The translations under genes were made by a program, and so were the position numbers. This document shows positions 2,029-26,530 of a stretch of DNA of 64,000 bases, piece after piece. The DNA is from a bacterium. GTDB taxonomy: Bacteria > UBA8248 > JACPRG01 > G963555815. The notes beneath the pieces are model-generated. The model was not told where the DNA came from and searched no databases. It was given only the letters and a program-made list of their open reading frames with translations. The first letter of the stretch is position 1. Each line of letters opens with the position of its first letter. The stretch spans positions 3,872,001 to 3,936,000 of the forward strand of contig OZ244653.1 in assembly GCA_965218795.1 (NCBI GenBank). Direction: 5' to 3'.

Positions 2029-3195
2029 GTGAATTTGAACCGCTCATTGATGTCAAGAAATTTAACTTTCCTGGTTCTCAGCAATTCGTTCCTGTTTCTT
2101 GCCTATCTGAGCTATCAGCTCCTGCCGCTGCACATCAAGGCGTTGGGCGGGGGGGAGTCGGACATCGGCAGGGTCATGGGTGTACCCAACCTGATGTCCG
2201 TTATTCTGACCCCCACCTTCGGCGTCCTTGTAGATCGTTTTGGCCGAAAACCAATCATCCTCCTCGGTCAAGGATTCGTCTTGGCTCCATGTCTGGGCTT
2301 CCTTGGAGCAGGGGATTCCTTCTTCCTTTTCGGGGTTTTCCGTGTCCTGCAAACTATCGGGATCGCGATGGCCTTCACTGCGGCGGGCGTGCTGGTGGCC
2401 GACACCACGCCTCCCGGCCGGCTGGCCCAAGCGCTGGGCCTGTATGGCCTCTCGGGTCTCGCCACACATGCCATCGCCCCGAGCGTGGGCGAGATCGTAA
2501 TTGACGCCGGAGGTTTTTCCGCACTGTTCGCACTCTCCATCGTCTATAGCGTGCTGGGTTTCGGGCTGGCCTCAAGGATCATCGACAAATCTCTGGAACA
2601 TGGAATTGCGCGAGGAGAGGGATCACTGTGGAAGCTATTCACCGCACCGGGATTCTCGCAAATTCTTCTCATCGGATTTGTGATGGGCGCGACCCTCGGC
2701 ACGGTGTCGACGTACATTCCCACTTACATTCGAAGCCGAGGGATTCAATGGATCAGCCTCTTTTATATCACTTACGCCCTGACGGCCATCTTTGTCCGGA
2801 TTGCGCTGGGGAGGATGTCTGACCGAATTGGCCATGAACGGATGGTGACGCCCGCATTCGGGGGTCTGGCGATCGCGGTTGTCTTGCTGAGTCAGGCTCA
2901 AGCTCAATGGATGTTTGCGCTTTCGGGCATGTTCAATGGCGCTTCGCACGGATTTCTATATCCCGCAACGAACGCGATGGCGCTGAATCGGGCGGGCAGG
3001 GAAAACGCGGGCAGAGCCCAGTCGCTCTACGGCGCCTCATTCAGCGCAGGGATGACGGCGGGAGTTTTCCTCAACGGCTATTTGGCCGACTTTTTCGGCT
3101 ACAGTGTGATGTTTCTCGGGATGGGTGGATGGATACTCATTGCTCTGTCGGCCTTCTACGGACTGGAGCGCCGCAGGCCGCCGGTTCCATCGTGA
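2029..3195 (+). CDS. MFS transporter
   Basis: About 12 hydrophobic segments; motif A GVLVDRFGRK, repeated as GRMSDRIG. Confidence 0.9.
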   Translation: MNLNRSLMSRNLTFLVLSNSFLFLAYLSYQLLPLHIKALGGGESDIGRVMGVPNLMSVILTPTFGVLVDRFGRKPIILLGQGFVLAPCLGFLGAGDSFFLFGVFRVLQTIGIAMAFTAAGVLVADTTPPGRLAQALGLYGLSGLATHAIAPSVGEIVIDAGGFSALFALSIVYSVLGFGLASRIIDKSLEHGIARGEGSLWKLFTAPGFSQILLIGFVMGATLGTVSTYIPTYIRSRGIQWISLFYITYALTAIFVRIALGRMSDRIGHERMVTPAFGGLAIAVVLLSQAQAQWMFALSGMFNGASHGFLYPATNAMALNRAGRENAGRAQSLYGASFSAGMTAGVFLNGYLADFFGYSVMFLGMGGWILIALSAFYGLERRRPPVPS

Positions 3196-3264
3196 ATCAA
3201 TAATCGATGATCATCAATATCTTGTAATTTTTTCGAATTTTTCATCTATATATTGTATTTTTTC

Positions 3265-3294
3265 TTGACAACATGCCCAAAGAGCGATTAGGCT
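3265..3294 (+). promoter_or_regulatory. Sigma70-like promoter with AT-rich upstream element
   Basis: TTGACA (3265-3270), 18-nt spacer, TAGGCT (3289-3294). The predicted start (~3301) coincides with the first base of a long closing helix. Confidence 0.6.
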
Positions 3295-3300
3295 TCTTAT

Positions 3301-3595
3301 GGGCTTGGGCGCTTTTGGGGCTCGTGAGGTGTCACTGGTCTGGTGATAAGTTGGCAGGGGAGGCCTGAAGACATCACGGGTTTCTATGTTGCAAGGCGCC
3401 GGGAAGGAGGTGATGATTAGGGGAAGTCGGACCGCAGACTGACCGAAATCAAATTACGCTCCAACGGAAGACGTGGTGGCGGTTCAAGTGCAAGCCACGA
3501 GGACATGTAAAGAATTTGAGGCGTCGAGGATTTCGTAAGCCGGTCGAGCAGAAACTTCGGTCAGTAGTCGGCGACAGAAAGAAGCGCCCAAGCTC
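3301..3595 (+). ncRNA. Candidate structured ncRNA (~295 nt), family unknown
   Basis: 16-bp 5'/3' closing helix, several nested helices, an upstream promoter and no credible ORF. Confidence 0.6.
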
Positions 3596-3629
3596 AAAGT
3601 TTTTCTCCTGCAAAGCTCTCTGTTCTACA

Positions 3630-4271
3630 TCACCGTTTGGATTTCTTGTAGCCTCTCCGGATCGCCTCCCTCTCGGTCTTGAACTCGACGCGGAACCTGC
3701 TTTTTTTCATCAAGCCGTAATACCTCCCCCCCTCAACGTGAAACTTGCGGGTTTTCGAATTGCCGATGATCGGCGGGTTAAGGCTGCGGCTCCGGGCCCT
3801 CCCCATGGAAATCCCCGCCCATAGACCTTTGCGTTGGGTTCTGGCCGTCCGCTCCAGGCGACGAAACAAATTCGCGTACTTCAGGTTGGGGGGATAGGGC
3901 GATGCGCGCGCGTAACCCTCAGAGATCAGCATGGCGTTCACCAGCCGTCCGTCGGCCAGGAATACGTATACCTGAAGCCGGCCGTATCGGTCCCATCTCT
4001 GCCGGCCGAACCGGATCCGAACCCTCTTGCCCTGAATCAGGTTCTTGAGAAATCTGCTCGCATCTTCTCCATAATACTCGACGGGTTTCCGGGGGTGACG
4101 GGTTTCAGGCGTATCGACCCCGATCAAACGCAGATGAACCTCAAATGTATCGCCGTCAATGACCCGCTGCACGCGGATATCCTGGGCTTGCGCCATGGTG
4201 CTTCGGGTCAAGCCGTAGGATCCTGACAAGATGAAAAATCCGAGAATCATTGTCGTAACGGTGACGGACAT
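3630..4271 (-). CDS. Secreted thermonuclease (SNase-like) with C-terminal Ada-like accessory domain
   Basis: RVIDGDT, LRLIGVDTPE, DRYGRL, VNAMLISEGYA, KGLW; C-terminal IIGNSKTRKFH..F.TEREA..GY; N-terminal signal. Confidence 0.9.
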   Translation of the reverse strand: MSVTVTTMILGFFILSGSYGLTRSTMAQAQDIRVQRVIDGDTFEVHLRLIGVDTPETRHPRKPVEYYGEDASRFLKNLIQGKRVRIRFGRQRWDRYGRLQVYVFLADGRLVNAMLISEGYARASPYPPNLKYANLFRRLERTARTQRKGLWAGISMGRARSRSLNPPIIGNSKTRKFHVEGGRYYGLMKKSRFRVEFKTEREAIRRGYKKSKR

Positions 4272-4557
4272 CGAAGATACTCTTTCGTAATAAATTTCTT
4301 ATACTTTCGTTTTAGATTAGTCTAATTATGTTCCTGCAGCAATCCTGAATATCGCAGCAGTCCACAAGTGTGTGGATTCAGCGTTTGATTGCGGGCGAGT
4401 AGAACGTATTTCGAGTTCAGTCTTCTCCATTGATGAGGCGTTATTGGAGCAATATGTATAATTGATGCCTCGATAAGGCTTGAAGTACCTCCGGTTATTC
4501 CATTGCTCGAAAGGTTGAAAGCTCTTGAACGCTCGATAGGAGCGCATCACGGTACCG

Positions 4558-6312
4558 ATGAAAACCGCTGATTCTCAAAAAGGTTCGATGTGGGAGCTCG
4601 CAGGCTGCTTCCGTAAGTATCGGGGCCGTCTGGTCTGCGGATTTCTGCTCCTCATGGGGGCGAACGCCATGGGGATCAGCATCCCCTGGCTGATCAAGGA
4701 TGCGATCGAAGGGCTTCGGGCCGGCCTGGACCTGGGGGTCATCCGGTGGTTCGCCCTGGCCATCGTCATCGCGGCTGTCATCCAGGGGGTTGTACGGATT
4801 GCCTCCAGGCATTTGTTCCTCGGCGTGAGCCGGGGGATCGAATTTGACATTCGGACGAAGCTGTTTCGGCGTCTTCAGTCGCTGTCTCTGACATTTTTTC
4901 AGAAGACCACCACCGGTGACATCATGTCGCGGGCCACGAATGACCTCAATGCCGTTCGAATGGTGCTGGGCCCCGGTGTCACCCACGGCTTGAATTCAAT
5001 CATCGTGTATCTTTTCGCGGTCTCCGCGATGATGGCGATCAGCTTCAAGCTGACTTTTCTGGCCGTCATTCTCTTCCCGATCTGGATCATCGGAATGCGC
5101 CGTTTCTTCATTCGGATGAACGAAGTGTCCCGACGTTCACAGGAGGCCTTGTCGGACATCAGCACGCAGGTTCACGAGAACCTGAGCGGGATGATGGTCG
5201 TCAAGCTGTTCGTCCAGGAAGGCAATGAAAAGGAGCGGTTCGCCCGCCTGAACGACGCCTATATCGGATGGACCGCTCACTACGCGAGGCTTCGAGCGTT
5301 TATCTTCAGCCTCATGACGGCGTTGGGGGGGATGGGCGTGCTGATCATCCTCTACGTTGGCGGGCGGGGGGTCATCACGGGTCAAATCACGCTGGGGGCG
5401 TTCGTGGCGTTCGCCAGCTACTTGGCCATGCTCCTCTGGCCGACTATCGCCTTGGGTTGGATCATCGGTCTCTTTCAGCAGGGCAAGGCATCTTGGGAGC
5501 GTGTGAGCTGGCTGTTGAATCAACAGCCGGAGAGCCGGGAAGAAAGCGCTCACCCCTCCATCATCCGCGGAGAGATCCAAGTCGAGAATCTTTCGTTCGC
5601 CTATGACGGCGGGCCGGACGTGCTCAACGGCCTCAGCTTCCGCATCGCTCCGGGCGAGAAGGTCGCATTGGTGGGAGGGATTGGCTCAGGCAAGTCGACG
5701 CTGATCCGACTGCTCACTGGATTGTTACCAGCCCCCAGGGGGGTCATCTTCTTTGACGGGTCGGACGTGAACGACTATTCGCATGATGCCATCCGCCGGT
5801 CGATCGCCCTCGTTCCCCAGGAGCCTTTTCTCTTCTCCCGGACGGTGTATGACAATGTGGCCTTCGGGGGCGAGTCCCCGGATTTTCCGGCGATTCGCGC
5901 CGCAACCGACGCTGCGCATTTCACCGCGGAGGTGGAGCAGTTTCCCGAAGGCTTTCAAGCGGTTCTCGGAGAGCGCGGGCTGACCCTTTCCACCGGCCAG
6001 CGCCAGCGAACCACCATCGCCCGGGGGATTGTGGATAAGCACCGTGTCCTGATCCTGGACGACGTACTCTCGAGCCTGGATGCAGGAACCGGCAGGGGAA
6101 TCCTGGAAGACATTCGGGAATGGGGAGAAGACCTCACCCTCCTGTTCATCTCCCACAACCTGGCGGCCGCCCGGCAGGCGGACCGAATTCTGGTCATCGA
6201 CCAAGGGCGGATCGTCGAGGAAGGCGCCCACGATGACCTGCTTCAGCAAGACGGCCGCTACGCACGAATGCACGAGCACCAGCGGCTGATGGCCGAATTG
6301 GAGACGCTCTGA
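4558..6312 (+). CDS. ABC exporter, fused permease/ATPase (degenerate-site half of a heterodimer)
   Basis: TMD plus Walker A GGIGSGKST, signature LSTGQRQR and Walker B ILDD (no catalytic Glu). Confidence 0.9.
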   Translation: MKTADSQKGSMWELAGCFRKYRGRLVCGFLLLMGANAMGISIPWLIKDAIEGLRAGLDLGVIRWFALAIVIAAVIQGVVRIASRHLFLGVSRGIEFDIRTKLFRRLQSLSLTFFQKTTTGDIMSRATNDLNAVRMVLGPGVTHGLNSIIVYLFAVSAMMAISFKLTFLAVILFPIWIIGMRRFFIRMNEVSRRSQEALSDISTQVHENLSGMMVVKLFVQEGNEKERFARLNDAYIGWTAHYARLRAFIFSLMTALGGMGVLIILYVGGRGVITGQITLGAFVAFASYLAMLLWPTIALGWIIGLFQQGKASWERVSWLLNQQPESREESAHPSIIRGEIQVENLSFAYDGGPDVLNGLSFRIAPGEKVALVGGIGSGKSTLIRLLTGLLPAPRGVIFFDGSDVNDYSHDAIRRSIALVPQEPFLFSRTVYDNVAFGGESPDFPAIRAATDAAHFTAEVEQFPEGFQAVLGERGLTLSTGQRQRTTIARGIVDKHRVLILDDVLSSLDAGTGRGILEDIREWGEDLTLLFISHNLAAARQADRILVIDQGRIVEEGAHDDLLQQDGRYARMHEHQRLMAELETL

Positions 6313-8240
6313 TGCCCCATGTCTCCGGAGCGGTCTATGAAGAAAAGAACCCGGGGCGCGCCTATGATGGCCGGCTTCTGAGGCGGTTGGTCAAGAGGTA
6401 TGTGAGGCATCTTTGGAAGCTCCTCCTGGGCACGCTCGTTTGCCTTCCGGCTGCGGCTGCCCTGGAGCTCGTCCAGCCCTATCTCATGAAGGTGGTCGTC
6501 GATGAACACCTCACCAACGGACGGTTGGAGGGCCTCCTTCCTTTGTGCGCGCTCTTCTTCAGTGCCGTGATCGGGCTGACCCTGGTCCGTTTCGCCCAGA
6601 CGTACTGGATCATGATGCTGGGCCAGCGGGTGACGTACCGGATGCGCGAAGAGGTGTTCGCGCGGGTTCAGGATTTTCCCCAGTCGTACTTTGACCGCAC
6701 TCCGGTCGGGCGGTTGCTGACCCGGATGACGTCCGATGTCGAGGTGATTCAGGAGATGTTTTCGTCGGGAATTGTGACCGTCGTGGGGGACGTTTTTCTC
6801 CTGGCCGGAATCATGGGCGCAATGCTGTGGCTGAACGTCAAACTCGCCCTGCTGACCTTCATGGCCATTCCGGTCTTGTTGGGGGTCACGTTCTGGGTGC
6901 GCCCCCGCATTCGCGAAGCCTTCCGCCGGGTTCGAGCCAAGCTTTCCGAAATCAACTCCTTTTTGGCGGAACATCTGAGCGGGATGACCGTTGTGCAGCT
7001 GTTCAGGAAGGAGGAGGCGTCGAACCGGCTCTTCGACGGGCTGGCGGATGAATACCGCGAACAGGCCCATCACGCCATTCTCTATGATGTGAGCCTCTAT
7101 GCCGTGGTCGAGGCGACCGGCGCCGTCGTGGTCGCCGGCCTGATTTGGTATGGCGGGGGGGAGATCCTGGAAGGGGCGCTTACCTTCGGCGTGCTGGTCG
7201 CCTTCCTGGGCTATATCCAGAAATTCTTTTCTCCCCTCATGGACCTGTCCTCCAAGTACACCATCATGCAGTCGGCGATGGCGGCGTTGGAGCGTATATT
7301 CAACCTCCTCGATGAACCGGTCGAGCCGGTGCTGGGGGGGAATACCGGCGCCGATGCGATTCCAGAGGGCAGCGCGTCTGCCGTGTCAGTGTTGCCCAAG
7401 GAGCCGGCGCCGGAGGGGAAGGGGCCCGCCATCTCCTTCGAGGACGTGTCCTTTTCGTATGACGGGAATCAGCCGGTTCTGGAAGGTGTCTCGTTTCGAG
7501 CCGATCCCGGAGAGACCGTCGCACTCGTGGGAGCCACCGGAGCGGGGAAAAGCACCTGCCTGAAACTGCTCTGCCGCTTGTATGAACTCGAGCAGGGCCG
7601 GATTACCCTGGACGGCGAGGACCTCCGGGAGATTCCCTCCCGGCGGCTCCGTTCCAGAATCGGAATGGTCATGCAAGACGTCTTTCTCTTCACGGGGGAT
7701 ATCGACCGGAACATCCGGCTGGGAGACGGGTTCATCGAAGAGGAAAGCGTCCGAAAAGTGGCCGACGAGCTCGGCCTGTGGAAAATCGTCCGCAAATTCC
7801 CGGATGGATTTGAATCGAGCGTTCGGGAGCGAGGGAGCAACCTTTCGGCCGGAGAGCGTCAGTTGCTTTCGCTGGCGAGGGCTGTGGTTCGAAGACCCGA
7901 GATCCTGCTCGTCGACGAGGCCACCTCAAACCTGGATCCCTCCACGGAGTACGAGATTCAGCGGGTGTTGAGCTCGGTGTATGGAAGGACGACGACACTG
8001 GTGGTCGCCCACCGACTCTCGACCGTCCAGCGGGCGAATCGCATCGTAGTTCTTCACAAACGTCAGGTCCGGGAAGTCGGGACGCATTCCGAATTGCTTG
8101 CGCAGGGGGGGATTTACGCCCGGCTTTACGAGCTTCAGTACCGTCGGCAGGAGATTGGCCCCCCATCCGATGGCGAACCTTCAGGAGATAGCCGGCCATT
8201 GCCTCATCTGGATGCCCGGCCGGAAGGCATCGGACCATAA
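6312..8240 (+). CDS. ABC exporter, fused permease/ATPase (consensus half of a heterodimer)
   Basis: GATGAGKS, LSAGERQ, LVDEATS, VAHRLST; TGATG overlap with the upstream gene. Confidence 0.9.
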   Translation: MPHVSGAVYEEKNPGRAYDGRLLRRLVKRYVRHLWKLLLGTLVCLPAAAALELVQPYLMKVVVDEHLTNGRLEGLLPLCALFFSAVIGLTLVRFAQTYWIMMLGQRVTYRMREEVFARVQDFPQSYFDRTPVGRLLTRMTSDVEVIQEMFSSGIVTVVGDVFLLAGIMGAMLWLNVKLALLTFMAIPVLLGVTFWVRPRIREAFRRVRAKLSEINSFLAEHLSGMTVVQLFRKEEASNRLFDGLADEYREQAHHAILYDVSLYAVVEATGAVVVAGLIWYGGGEILEGALTFGVLVAFLGYIQKFFSPLMDLSSKYTIMQSAMAALERIFNLLDEPVEPVLGGNTGADAIPEGSASAVSVLPKEPAPEGKGPAISFEDVSFSYDGNQPVLEGVSFRADPGETVALVGATGAGKSTCLKLLCRLYELEQGRITLDGEDLREIPSRRLRSRIGMVMQDVFLFTGDIDRNIRLGDGFIEEESVRKVADELGLWKIVRKFPDGFESSVRERGSNLSAGERQLLSLARAVVRRPEILLVDEATSNLDPSTEYEIQRVLSSVYGRTTTLVVAHRLSTVQRANRIVVLHKRQVREVGTHSELLAQGGIYARLYELQYRRQEIGPPSDGEPSGDSRPLPHLDARPEGIGP

Positions 8241-26387: not shown

Positions 26388-26458
26388 TGGTGGAGGTGGG
26401 GGGAATCGAACCCCCGGGGCGAGCCTTCCAAACTGCGACCCCGCAACCTGCCACCCCC
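26388..26458 (-). ncRNA. tRNA/tmRNA-TLD-like small RNA lacking a D-stem; candidate C4/CI-type antisense RNA
   Basis: Acceptor stem GGGGGTG/CACCTCC with G3-U70 and ACCA end; T-arm GGGGG-TTCGATT-CCCCC; 9-nt D-replacement loop; long bulged middle arm with loop TTTGGAA. Confidence 0.72.
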
Positions 26459-26501: not shown

Positions 26502-26530
26502 AATTTACGGCCCCGGGAACATCCTGTCAA
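26502..26530 (-). promoter_or_regulatory. Sigma70 promoter driving the tRNA-like RNA
   Basis: Minus strand TTGACA-N17-TAAATT, followed by a leader hairpin (~26466-26496) and then the tRNA-like unit. Confidence 0.7.

Follow-up and report, generated by a model that had tools for sequence, protein, structure and literature searches.

What is encoded between the two converging genes near the start of the window, the 64,000-nucleotide (nt) stretch of contig OZ244653.1 analysed here? The interval lies between an MFS transporter gene upstream (2029-3195, plus strand) and a convergent gene for an SNase-family nuclease downstream (3630-4271, minus strand), and a preliminary description of the sequence had placed within it an unannotated, independently transcribed, structured noncoding RNA (ncRNA). 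The analysis upheld that proposal: the RNA matched no Rfam family, its homologs covaried, and contigs from RNA libraries were confined to the element. The gene was assigned to positions 3301-3595 of the plus strand (about 295 nt), with the ends inferred from the closing helix, P1, and from the promoter, and it very probably represents a genuine new class of structured, abundant, stand-alone RNA. It is present as a single copy in the 5.17-Mb single-contig genome to which the window belongs; all other matches to the ncRNA in a BLAST search of that genome were of at most 21 nt, with E values of at least 0.2. With regard to function, the most specific reading that the evidence supports, though tentatively, is that an invariant purine tract in the RNA would bind the anti-Shine-Dalgarno (anti-SD) sequence of the 30S ribosomal subunit.

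Structure, promoter and expression of the RNA

Related genomes, in which the preliminary description had advised a search for homologs, were found by BLASTN to carry copies of the element. A full-length copy that was 83% identical was present in another genome of the same genus (G001), and the 5' and 3' parts were conserved in four other genomes of the family. Nine full-length homologs were obtained, each spanning 286-298 nt when the two terminal bases of the closing helix are taken as its ends; six formed a closer group and three were more distant.

The plus strand at 3301-3600 had a predicted folding energy of -116 kcal/mol, compared with -94.9 ± 4.7 kcal/mol for 200 dinucleotide shuffles (z = -4.53), none of which folded as well. 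The fold of the minus strand was weaker (z = -2.65) and was matched by 2 of 200 shuffles. In a MAFFT alignment of the six closer homologs, 92.7% of cells could pair, compared with 34-42% when the partners were slid, and 20 of the 89 base pairs were changed on both sides, compared with 3-7 for slid partners; none of 500 shuffles reached that number. A model-fitted alignment of ten rows, which leans towards structure and takes in one paralog (see below), gave 89.2% pairing (37-43% slid) and 31 both-side changes (7-11 slid). The covariation that had been sought as a check on the RNA was therefore present, at 20-31 both-side changes compared with 3-11 for slid partners. RNAalifold predicted the same multi-branched architecture for the six closer homologs and, when run separately, for the three distant ones, and the clearest compensatory changes were located in P1, in the long-range helix P3 and in the helix at 3438/3565.

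P1 is formed by 3301-3313 and 3583-3595. It was 100% paired in the six homologs, with five both-side changes, and 97.6% paired in the ten rows; the longer pairing of 3301-3316 with 3580-3595 that had been read from the window sequence does form there (16 pairs, reaching 3316/3580), and 13 of its pairs are conserved. Within P1 lies the hairpin domain P2 (3317-3384), which has a stem, 3317-3327/3374-3384, and an invariant apical region, GGUCUGGUGA ... UGGCAGGGGAGGCC. The stem pairs GGGGCTCGTGA with TCACGGGTTTC, as previously described, and was 97% paired in the six homologs, with two both-side changes (five in the ten-row alignment); an apical 14-mer was invariant in eight of the nine homologs. 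The inner helices assigned to this domain, GTGTC/GACAT and CAGG/CCTG, are tentative, and in the three most distant homologs CAGG cannot pair with CCTG. Another candidate apical helix, GGUCU (3337-3341) with AGGCC (3361-3365), could pair in all nine homologs with one compensatory change, an apical hairpin, UCACU/GGUGA, was 92% paired in the ten-row alignment, and one homolog (G005) had a compensating change in both. On this modelling the apex of P2 may be the UCACU/GGUGA hairpin, the GGUCU/AGGCC helix, or both, forming a pseudoknot.

The 5' strand of P3, UGUUGCAAGGC (3387-3397), pairs with 3567-3576 and so encloses both the purine tract and a stacked 3' domain. P3 was 96% paired in the six homologs and had four both-side changes in the ten-row alignment; in the three distant homologs it is formed at the same place by CGUUACGAGGCC with GGUCUUGUACG. 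The 3' domain (3438-3565) consists of four stacked helices, 3438-3444/3559-3565, 3448-3452/3553-3557, 3456-3473/3534-3551 and 3483-3491/3521-3528, in which four, four, two and two pairs, respectively, were changed on both sides in the six homologs. The first of these is the pairing of ACTGACC with GGTCAGT from which the second domain had originally been recognised.

The promoter previously read as TTGACA-N18-TAGGCT, with transcription starting near 3301, was found as described. The -35 box TTGACA (3265-3270) and the -10 box TAGGCT (3289-3294) are separated by 18 nt, 6 nt lie between the -10 box and G3301, and the arrangement was conserved in all nine homologs. CTTGACA was invariant, and the -10 box followed a family consensus of TAnnnT (TAGGCT, TAGACT, TACGCT, TAAGCT, TAAGGT or TAAAGT), always 6-7 nt ahead of the first P1 base. 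A third element, TATTGTA (3251-3257), which was also conserved in all nine as TAT(T/G)GTA, lies 7-8 nt before the -35 box and would be an UP element or a regulator site. The complete layout, TAT(T/G)GTA, CTTGACA, a spacer of 17-18 nt, TAnnnT, 6-7 nt and the first G of P1, was shared by all nine homologs, and in the 5.17-Mb genome TATTGTA and TTGACA occur 5-10 nt apart once only, at this promoter. A sigma-70 consensus scan missed this promoter owing to its weak -10 box, in which TAGGCT matches TATAAT at just three of six positions; the promoter was called from its conservation in nine of nine homologs and not from the scan. As judged from sequence conservation, the ncRNA is transcribed from its own sigma-70-type promoter. 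At the 3' end a promoter and terminator scan found no terminator-like site; a short U-rich run is located just 3' of P1.

On the minus strand TATTGTA reads TACAAT, which the scan listed as the -10 box of a minus-strand candidate (3279 to 3252). Since that candidate lacks a downstream gene, TATTGTA was read as the upstream element of the ncRNA promoter; a divergent antisense start at 3279-3252 could exist as well.

The sequencing runs that contain the stretch included six RNA libraries. When the contigs of four sponge metatranscriptome runs from three studies were mapped to 2601-4600, each run yielded one contig, of 276, 279, 260 and 245 nt at 3310-3585, 3310-3588, 3314-3572 and 3341-3584, respectively, with a word depth of 6-82. 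In all four runs the flanks (2601-3309 and 3589-4600) were without a contig, an absence that is a weak hint at most. Two of the four contigs were a variant with nine differences, and a close relative is therefore also represented. It counts against this evidence that contigs cannot show the strand, ends or level of an RNA and that RNA libraries can carry DNA. Even so, four whole contigs from three studies that end inside the predicted RNA are as expected of a discrete, abundant small RNA, and the search for a transcript thus returned RNA-library contigs confined to the ncRNA in four of four sponge runs.

The RNA is not coding. In the window genome the SD-like tract is followed directly by a 9-codon frame (ATG ATT ... 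TGA), and by that frame only, as had been noted; no start codon was present at this position in the other eight homologs of the alignment, and none was read 5-12 nt downstream of the tract in any of the nine. One-base indels separate even the two copies from the same genus. Both the absence of the frame from the other homologs and these indels argue against coding.

Comparison with known RNA classes and distribution of homologs

Using Rfam 15 at gathering thresholds, no match was obtained inside the ncRNA when the whole window was searched. At E ≤ 10 the sole row for 3100-3750 was a chance match to the XIST A-repeat (E = 7) inside the nuclease gene, six homolog loci searched at the same threshold gave no match inside the ncRNA, and the locus of the paralog gave none at E ≤ 1. 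The Rfam search suggested at the outset thus left the element outside every family, even at E ≤ 10. The earlier statement that the RNA is not RNase P RNA, transfer-messenger RNA (tmRNA), signal recognition particle (SRP) RNA or 6S RNA was also correct. Neither RNase P RNA (RF00010; searched over 3100-3750) nor 6S RNA (RF00013) was matched at E ≤ 10, neither tmRNA (RF00023) nor SRP RNA (RF00169) had a match in the ncRNA, and the genuine genes of all four are located elsewhere in the genome, at 3367213-3367588 (RNase P RNA, 324.6 bits), 4046707-4047067 (tmRNA, 200.7 bits), 3496875-3496974 (SRP RNA, 65.9 bits) and 4826982-4827164 (6S RNA, 87.6 bits), each scoring above its own cut-off. In a full-text literature search, with supplementary files outside its scope, no description of such an RNA surfaced.

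The proposal that the RNA might be a CsrA-binding decoy did not hold. A search for CsrA (PF02599) gave no match at E ≤ 0.01 in the 98.9%-complete, single-contig genome, the control for this search having matched 3 of 14 known genomes. The GGA motifs (about seven in 295 nt, counted by eye) are close to the number predicted by composition and do not recur in hairpin loops; among sites that contain GGA, conservation is limited to the purine tract and an ACGGRA site. Ro/TROVE (PF05731) also had no match in the genome, and no Rfam Y RNA family matched the ncRNA. With neither CsrA nor a Ro gene, both the CsrA-sponge and the Y RNA readings fail. A cis-regulatory leader or riboswitch was rejected because the next gene is convergent and the contigs end at 3585-3588, with the same arrangement in the relative G002. 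A type III toxin-antitoxin RNA of the ToxI kind was rejected because no tandem repeat was seen by eye, the nuclease gene is convergent, and the RNA is kept without a nuclease gene in G001.

The RNA nevertheless resembles several known systems in part. Like the ncRNA, 6S RNA is abundant and stand-alone, with 5' and 3' ends that form a long closing helix, and its action as a decoy that mimics the nucleic-acid ligand of a core machine can be likened to the function proposed below; 6S RNA is, however, a rod of approximately 185 nt whose central bubble imitates an open promoter, whereas the ncRNA has a branched fold of approximately 295 nt. CsrB/RsmZ-type sponges share the presence of SD-like, GGA-containing sequence in a noncoding RNA and the logic of titration, but they have many repeated GGA hairpins and need CsrA, whereas the ncRNA has one or two conserved GGA sites in a genome with no CsrA match. 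In Y RNAs bound by Ro (Rsr), both ends form a terminal helix to which protein binds, and a structured module extends from that helix, a likeness set against the lack of a TROVE/Ro gene in this genome. OLE, raiA, ROOL and GOLLD RNAs are lineage-restricted, have complex folds that are highly conserved, are often very abundant and were found by comparative genomics before their function was known. The ncRNA differs from them in size, architecture and host lineage (a small phylum), and it had no sequence or structure match to them in Rfam 15. Abundant, structured, stand-alone bacterial RNAs are few, and each one that has been characterised (6S, tmRNA, SRP RNA, RNase P, Y RNA, OLE) has revealed core biology. 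With the ncRNA, a lineage that is poorly studied and largely uncultured contributes a new class that is well supported; the RNA assembles from sponge metatranscriptomes where its neighbouring genes do not, and it is a clean candidate for structure determination.

To follow the distribution of the RNA, covariance models were used of the 5' domain (R1) and of the full length (R2). R1 matched all seven genomes of the family that includes the window genome, at 59-131 bits, and none of the 44 genomes of the three other families of the phylum (51 phylum genomes examined). R2, run on 41 genomes, gave the same distribution and scored 269.7 bits on the window copy at 3301-3595. In the phylum genomes outside the family, no credible match to R1 or R2 was obtained, just partial rows of 10.9-13.7 bits (E 0.09-0.68). 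An exact-pattern scan of one genome per species, covering 185,579 species, returned 11 stretches, of which six were the known relatives in the family; the other five (in a Verrucomicrobia single amplified genome, two Actinomadura and two Sphaerisporangium) were rejected, having no R1 match at the pattern site. The same kind of scan in metagenomes returned six stretches, including two true homologs on metagenome contigs. The pattern scan needs exact conserved blocks, and divergent relatives would escape it. As far as these searches reach, the ncRNA is restricted to one family of a small, largely metagenome-known phylum with sponge-associated members, within which it is kept even in the 2.1-Mb genomes G002 and G005. 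Whatever the function of the RNA, R1, R2 and the alignment provide an annotation marker for this family.

A paralog, 69% identical and with the same promoter elements, was found in one genome alone (G003, contig C22, 26347-26627; L046:1491-1771, plus strand). It is without the closing helix, its fold is no more stable than that of shuffles (z = +0.94), and it continues into a reading frame downstream that begins, by eye, like a signal peptide; it has the appearance of a duplicate that has decayed or been co-opted. The paralog was not used for conclusions, although it is one of the ten rows of the model-fitted alignment. On a metagenome contig from the distant group, a tRNA gene (L061:175-248, plus strand; 70.3 bits) lies approximately 770 nt upstream of the ncRNA.

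The purine tract, the 16S rRNA tail and rival explanations

The feature that gives the most specific indication of function is a purine tract, GGGAAGGAGGUGAU (3401-3414, plus strand), located just inside P3 and proposed here as a binding site for the 3' tail of 16S rRNA. Its core, GGAGGUG, was invariant in nine of nine homologs, and the consensus of the tract is GRRRGGAGGUGR. The preliminary description had called it a full complement of the 16S 3' end, and comparison with the 16S rRNA of the window genome itself confirmed this: AAGGAGGTGAT, at 3404-3414, is the exact complement of the 3' end, ...GGATCACCTCCTTTCT. The longer tail, ...GGAUCACCUCCUUUCU, was identical in 4 of 7 family genomes with that end assembled. 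In every homolog the alignment allows 13-15 consecutive pairs between tract and tail if G-U pairs are included; in the window genome there are 14, of which 11 are Watson-Crick. The tract position opposite the C of the tail is an invariant G, and where the tail has U the tract has either A or G, a pattern that fits intermolecular pairing without proving it.

No conserved internal partner for the tract was found by helix scan or partition function; the partners predicted vary from homolog to homolog, and promiscuous purine-pyrimidine options were all that emerged from the helix scan. The 11-mer AAGGAGGTGAT occurs 10 times in the genome, both strands counted. The genome uses long SD sequences, and its ribosomes therefore read sequences of this kind. 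A precedent for an SD sequence that binds without initiating is the STAB-SD of cry3A mRNA in Bacillus thuringiensis and of other Gram-positive mRNAs, described as pairing with the 16S 3' end and holding the 30S subunit (PMC4113751). By analogy with STAB-SD, the tract has extended complementarity to its own 16S tail and no usable start codon. According to the same source, STAB-SD is short, lies near the mRNA 5' end and blocks RNase J1 (PMC4113751), whereas the tract of the ncRNA is situated approximately 100 nt inside a closed structured RNA whose ends are protected by P1.

P1 (13-16 bp) locks both ends and holds the P2 hairpin domain together with a second domain closed by P3. On the reading proposed here, the tract would be an SD mimic without a start codon that pairs with 13-15 nt of the 16S tail, so that the RNA docks on 30S or late pre-30S particles. 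Docking might withhold 30S subunits from mRNA, or might deliver or park something on them, and the invariant apex of P2 would make another contact, to either a protein or the ribosome. Action in trans, binding of the anti-SD tail and any effect on translation are what we infer. The stronger form, in which the RNA is a natural anti-SD decoy, abundant and stand-alone, whose 13-15 bp duplex with the 16S tail captures 30S subunits or their late pre-30S precursors, is rather doubtful. If that form is true, a lineage of slow-growing marine and sponge-associated bacteria would use an RNA to throttle the initiation of translation or to hold it as a parking brake does, a ribosomal counterpart of the action of 6S RNA on RNA polymerase. 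If the tract engages the 16S tail, the ncRNA would be the first known example of an RNA decoy dedicated to the mRNA-docking site of the ribosome, and it would open a direct route to the question of how uncultured symbionts adjust their capacity for translation.

Several observations weigh against binding of the 16S tail. The predicted accessibility of the tract was ambiguous (mean probability of being unpaired 0.26-0.67 across the nine homologs), and in the ensemble of the window genome its core was unpaired with a probability of only 0.02. A pyrimidine run in the 3' end of P2 is likewise compatible with the variable purines of the tract, and the corresponding alignment columns (84-87 with 106-109) had two both-side changes; an internal helix or a switch might therefore account for the A/G pattern. 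The helix scan found the pyrimidine run at columns 84-87 to be compatible with five different purine runs, which makes it uninformative on the internal partner of the tract. Because the tract is promiscuous and the 16S tail invariant, intermolecular covariation is impossible to test. SD-like sequences are also common, so that a single conserved one might instead bind a protein or take part in a tertiary contact, and the anti-SD hypothesis leaves the invariant P2 apex and the 3' domain of approximately 130 nt unexplained.

A side observation concerns the rRNA precursor. The spacer that directly follows the 16S tail, CCUCCUUUCU (L066:3046-3068, window genome), reads AAGGAG in four of four family genomes examined, which would allow the anti-SD to be folded into a CUCCUU/AAGGAG hairpin in the precursor. 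It is of interest that the ncRNA carries the same AAGGAGG.

A near-equal rival to anti-SD binding, itself a real but minority possibility, is that the RNA is a scaffold or decoy for an RNA-binding protein or enzyme, which it would sequester, activate or localise through binding sites in the P2 apex and the tract. 6S, CsrB, CrcZ, Y RNA and OLE RNA act on proteins in these ways in other bacteria. The several invariant blocks, GGUCUGGUGA, UGGCAGGGGAGGCC, GUUGCAAGGC and GGAGGUG, are hard to explain by a single base-pairing site, and the retention of the RNA in the two 2.1-Mb genomes, its abundance in RNA libraries and the closure of its termini by P1 also favour a scaffold. No partner gene is linked to it, however, the sole common neighbour being a nuclease that is probably exported; the named candidates, CsrA and Ro/TROVE, are absent from the genome, and the true 6S gene is elsewhere.

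The remaining explanations trail these two. Regulation by base pairing, in which the tract or loops would pair with C-rich small RNAs (sRNAs) or with mRNAs and so titrate them or alter their translation, is improbable. The tract is SD-like, SD-targeting C-rich sRNAs such as the CcsR family in Rfam exist in other bacteria, and the ncRNA is expressed on its own, but a length of 295 nt with approximately 89 conserved base pairs and several invariant blocks is atypical of base-pairing sRNAs. The own-genome matches noted above (at most 21 nt, E of at least 0.2) came from a BLAST search and not from a dedicated search for partners; one Rfam row for CcsR1, at chance level, was located elsewhere in locus L042, outside the ncRNA.

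It is likewise unlikely that the RNA is catalytic or self-assembling, that is, a ribozyme or a homo-oligomeric particle in which the tract is a tertiary element. Such particles have been reported for raiA, OLE, ROOL and GOLLD RNAs. The multi-domain fold, with its long-range helices, possible apical pseudoknot and invariant junction nucleotides, is consistent with such a role, as is the motif GGUUCAA/GGUUGAA, which is conserved in the six closer homologs and appears T-loop-like by eye. Against it, no ribozyme or large-RNA family in Rfam matched at E ≤ 10, no substrate or processing site was evident, and the self-complementary UUGCAA sits in P3 and is lost in the three distant homologs. A kissing dimer was rejected, neither UUGCAA nor the self-complementary GGCGCC being conserved.

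Neighbouring genes and other features of the window

The SNase-family (thermonuclease) gene (3630-4271, minus strand) encodes 213 amino acids, matches Pfam SNase with an E value of 4.7e-25 and has an N-terminal hydrophobic segment; its reading frame ends at 3630, 34 nt from the last base of the ncRNA. The possibility of a functional link to this gene had been raised in the preliminary description. An SNase gene is adjacent to the ncRNA in G003, G006, G002 and G005 and on the metagenome contig L062, and it is the sole neighbour common to two different gene contexts. The link is weak, as G001 keeps the RNA with neither an SNase nor an MFS gene at the locus. Action in cis on the nuclease gene, by antisense or transcription interference, as an mRNA 3' region or as a type III antitoxin-like inhibitor, would draw on this adjacency and on the convergent orientation at 34-68 nt in the window genome and G002, but it is very improbable because G001, from the same genus, has the 83%-identical full-length RNA and no SNase gene, the RNA-library contigs stop at 3585-3588, outside the nuclease gene, the ncRNA has its own conserved promoter, and the hydrophobic N-terminus of the nuclease suggests by eye that it is exported; nor are there ToxI-type tandem repeats. 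The SNase gene is regarded as a neighbour, not as a demonstrated part of the system.

The upstream MFS transporter gene (2029-3195, plus strand; Pfam MFS_1, E = 2.2e-53) is context only. It was upstream of the ncRNA in three closer relatives only (G004, G006 and L062) and was not detected at the short G003 locus, and in G002 a gene for a CxxCxxCC-domain protein occupies its position. Beyond the nuclease gene are two ABC exporter genes in tandem, each with its membrane and ATPase domains fused (4558-8240, plus strand), a pair that is syntenic in the closer relatives G001, G003 and G006; the first of the two is also on L062.

Elsewhere in the window, a tRNA-like gene of 71 nt is located at 26388-26458 (minus strand), with a TTGACA box upstream, near 26525-26530, by eye. 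It scored 49.1 bits with the Rfam tmRNA model, 22 nt replacing the 318-nt mRNA and pseudoknot body, while ARAGORN called it tRNA-Ser(GGA), yet it has no long variable arm. A G3:U70 pair, an A as discriminator base and a CCA encoded in the gene were read from its sequence. The genuine ssrA gene lies 148 kb away, and its 3' end shares 85% identity with the 3' part of the tRNA-like gene, which as a whole is present in the window genome alone. The tRNA-like gene could be a tmRNA-derived mini-gene or the remnant of an integration event.

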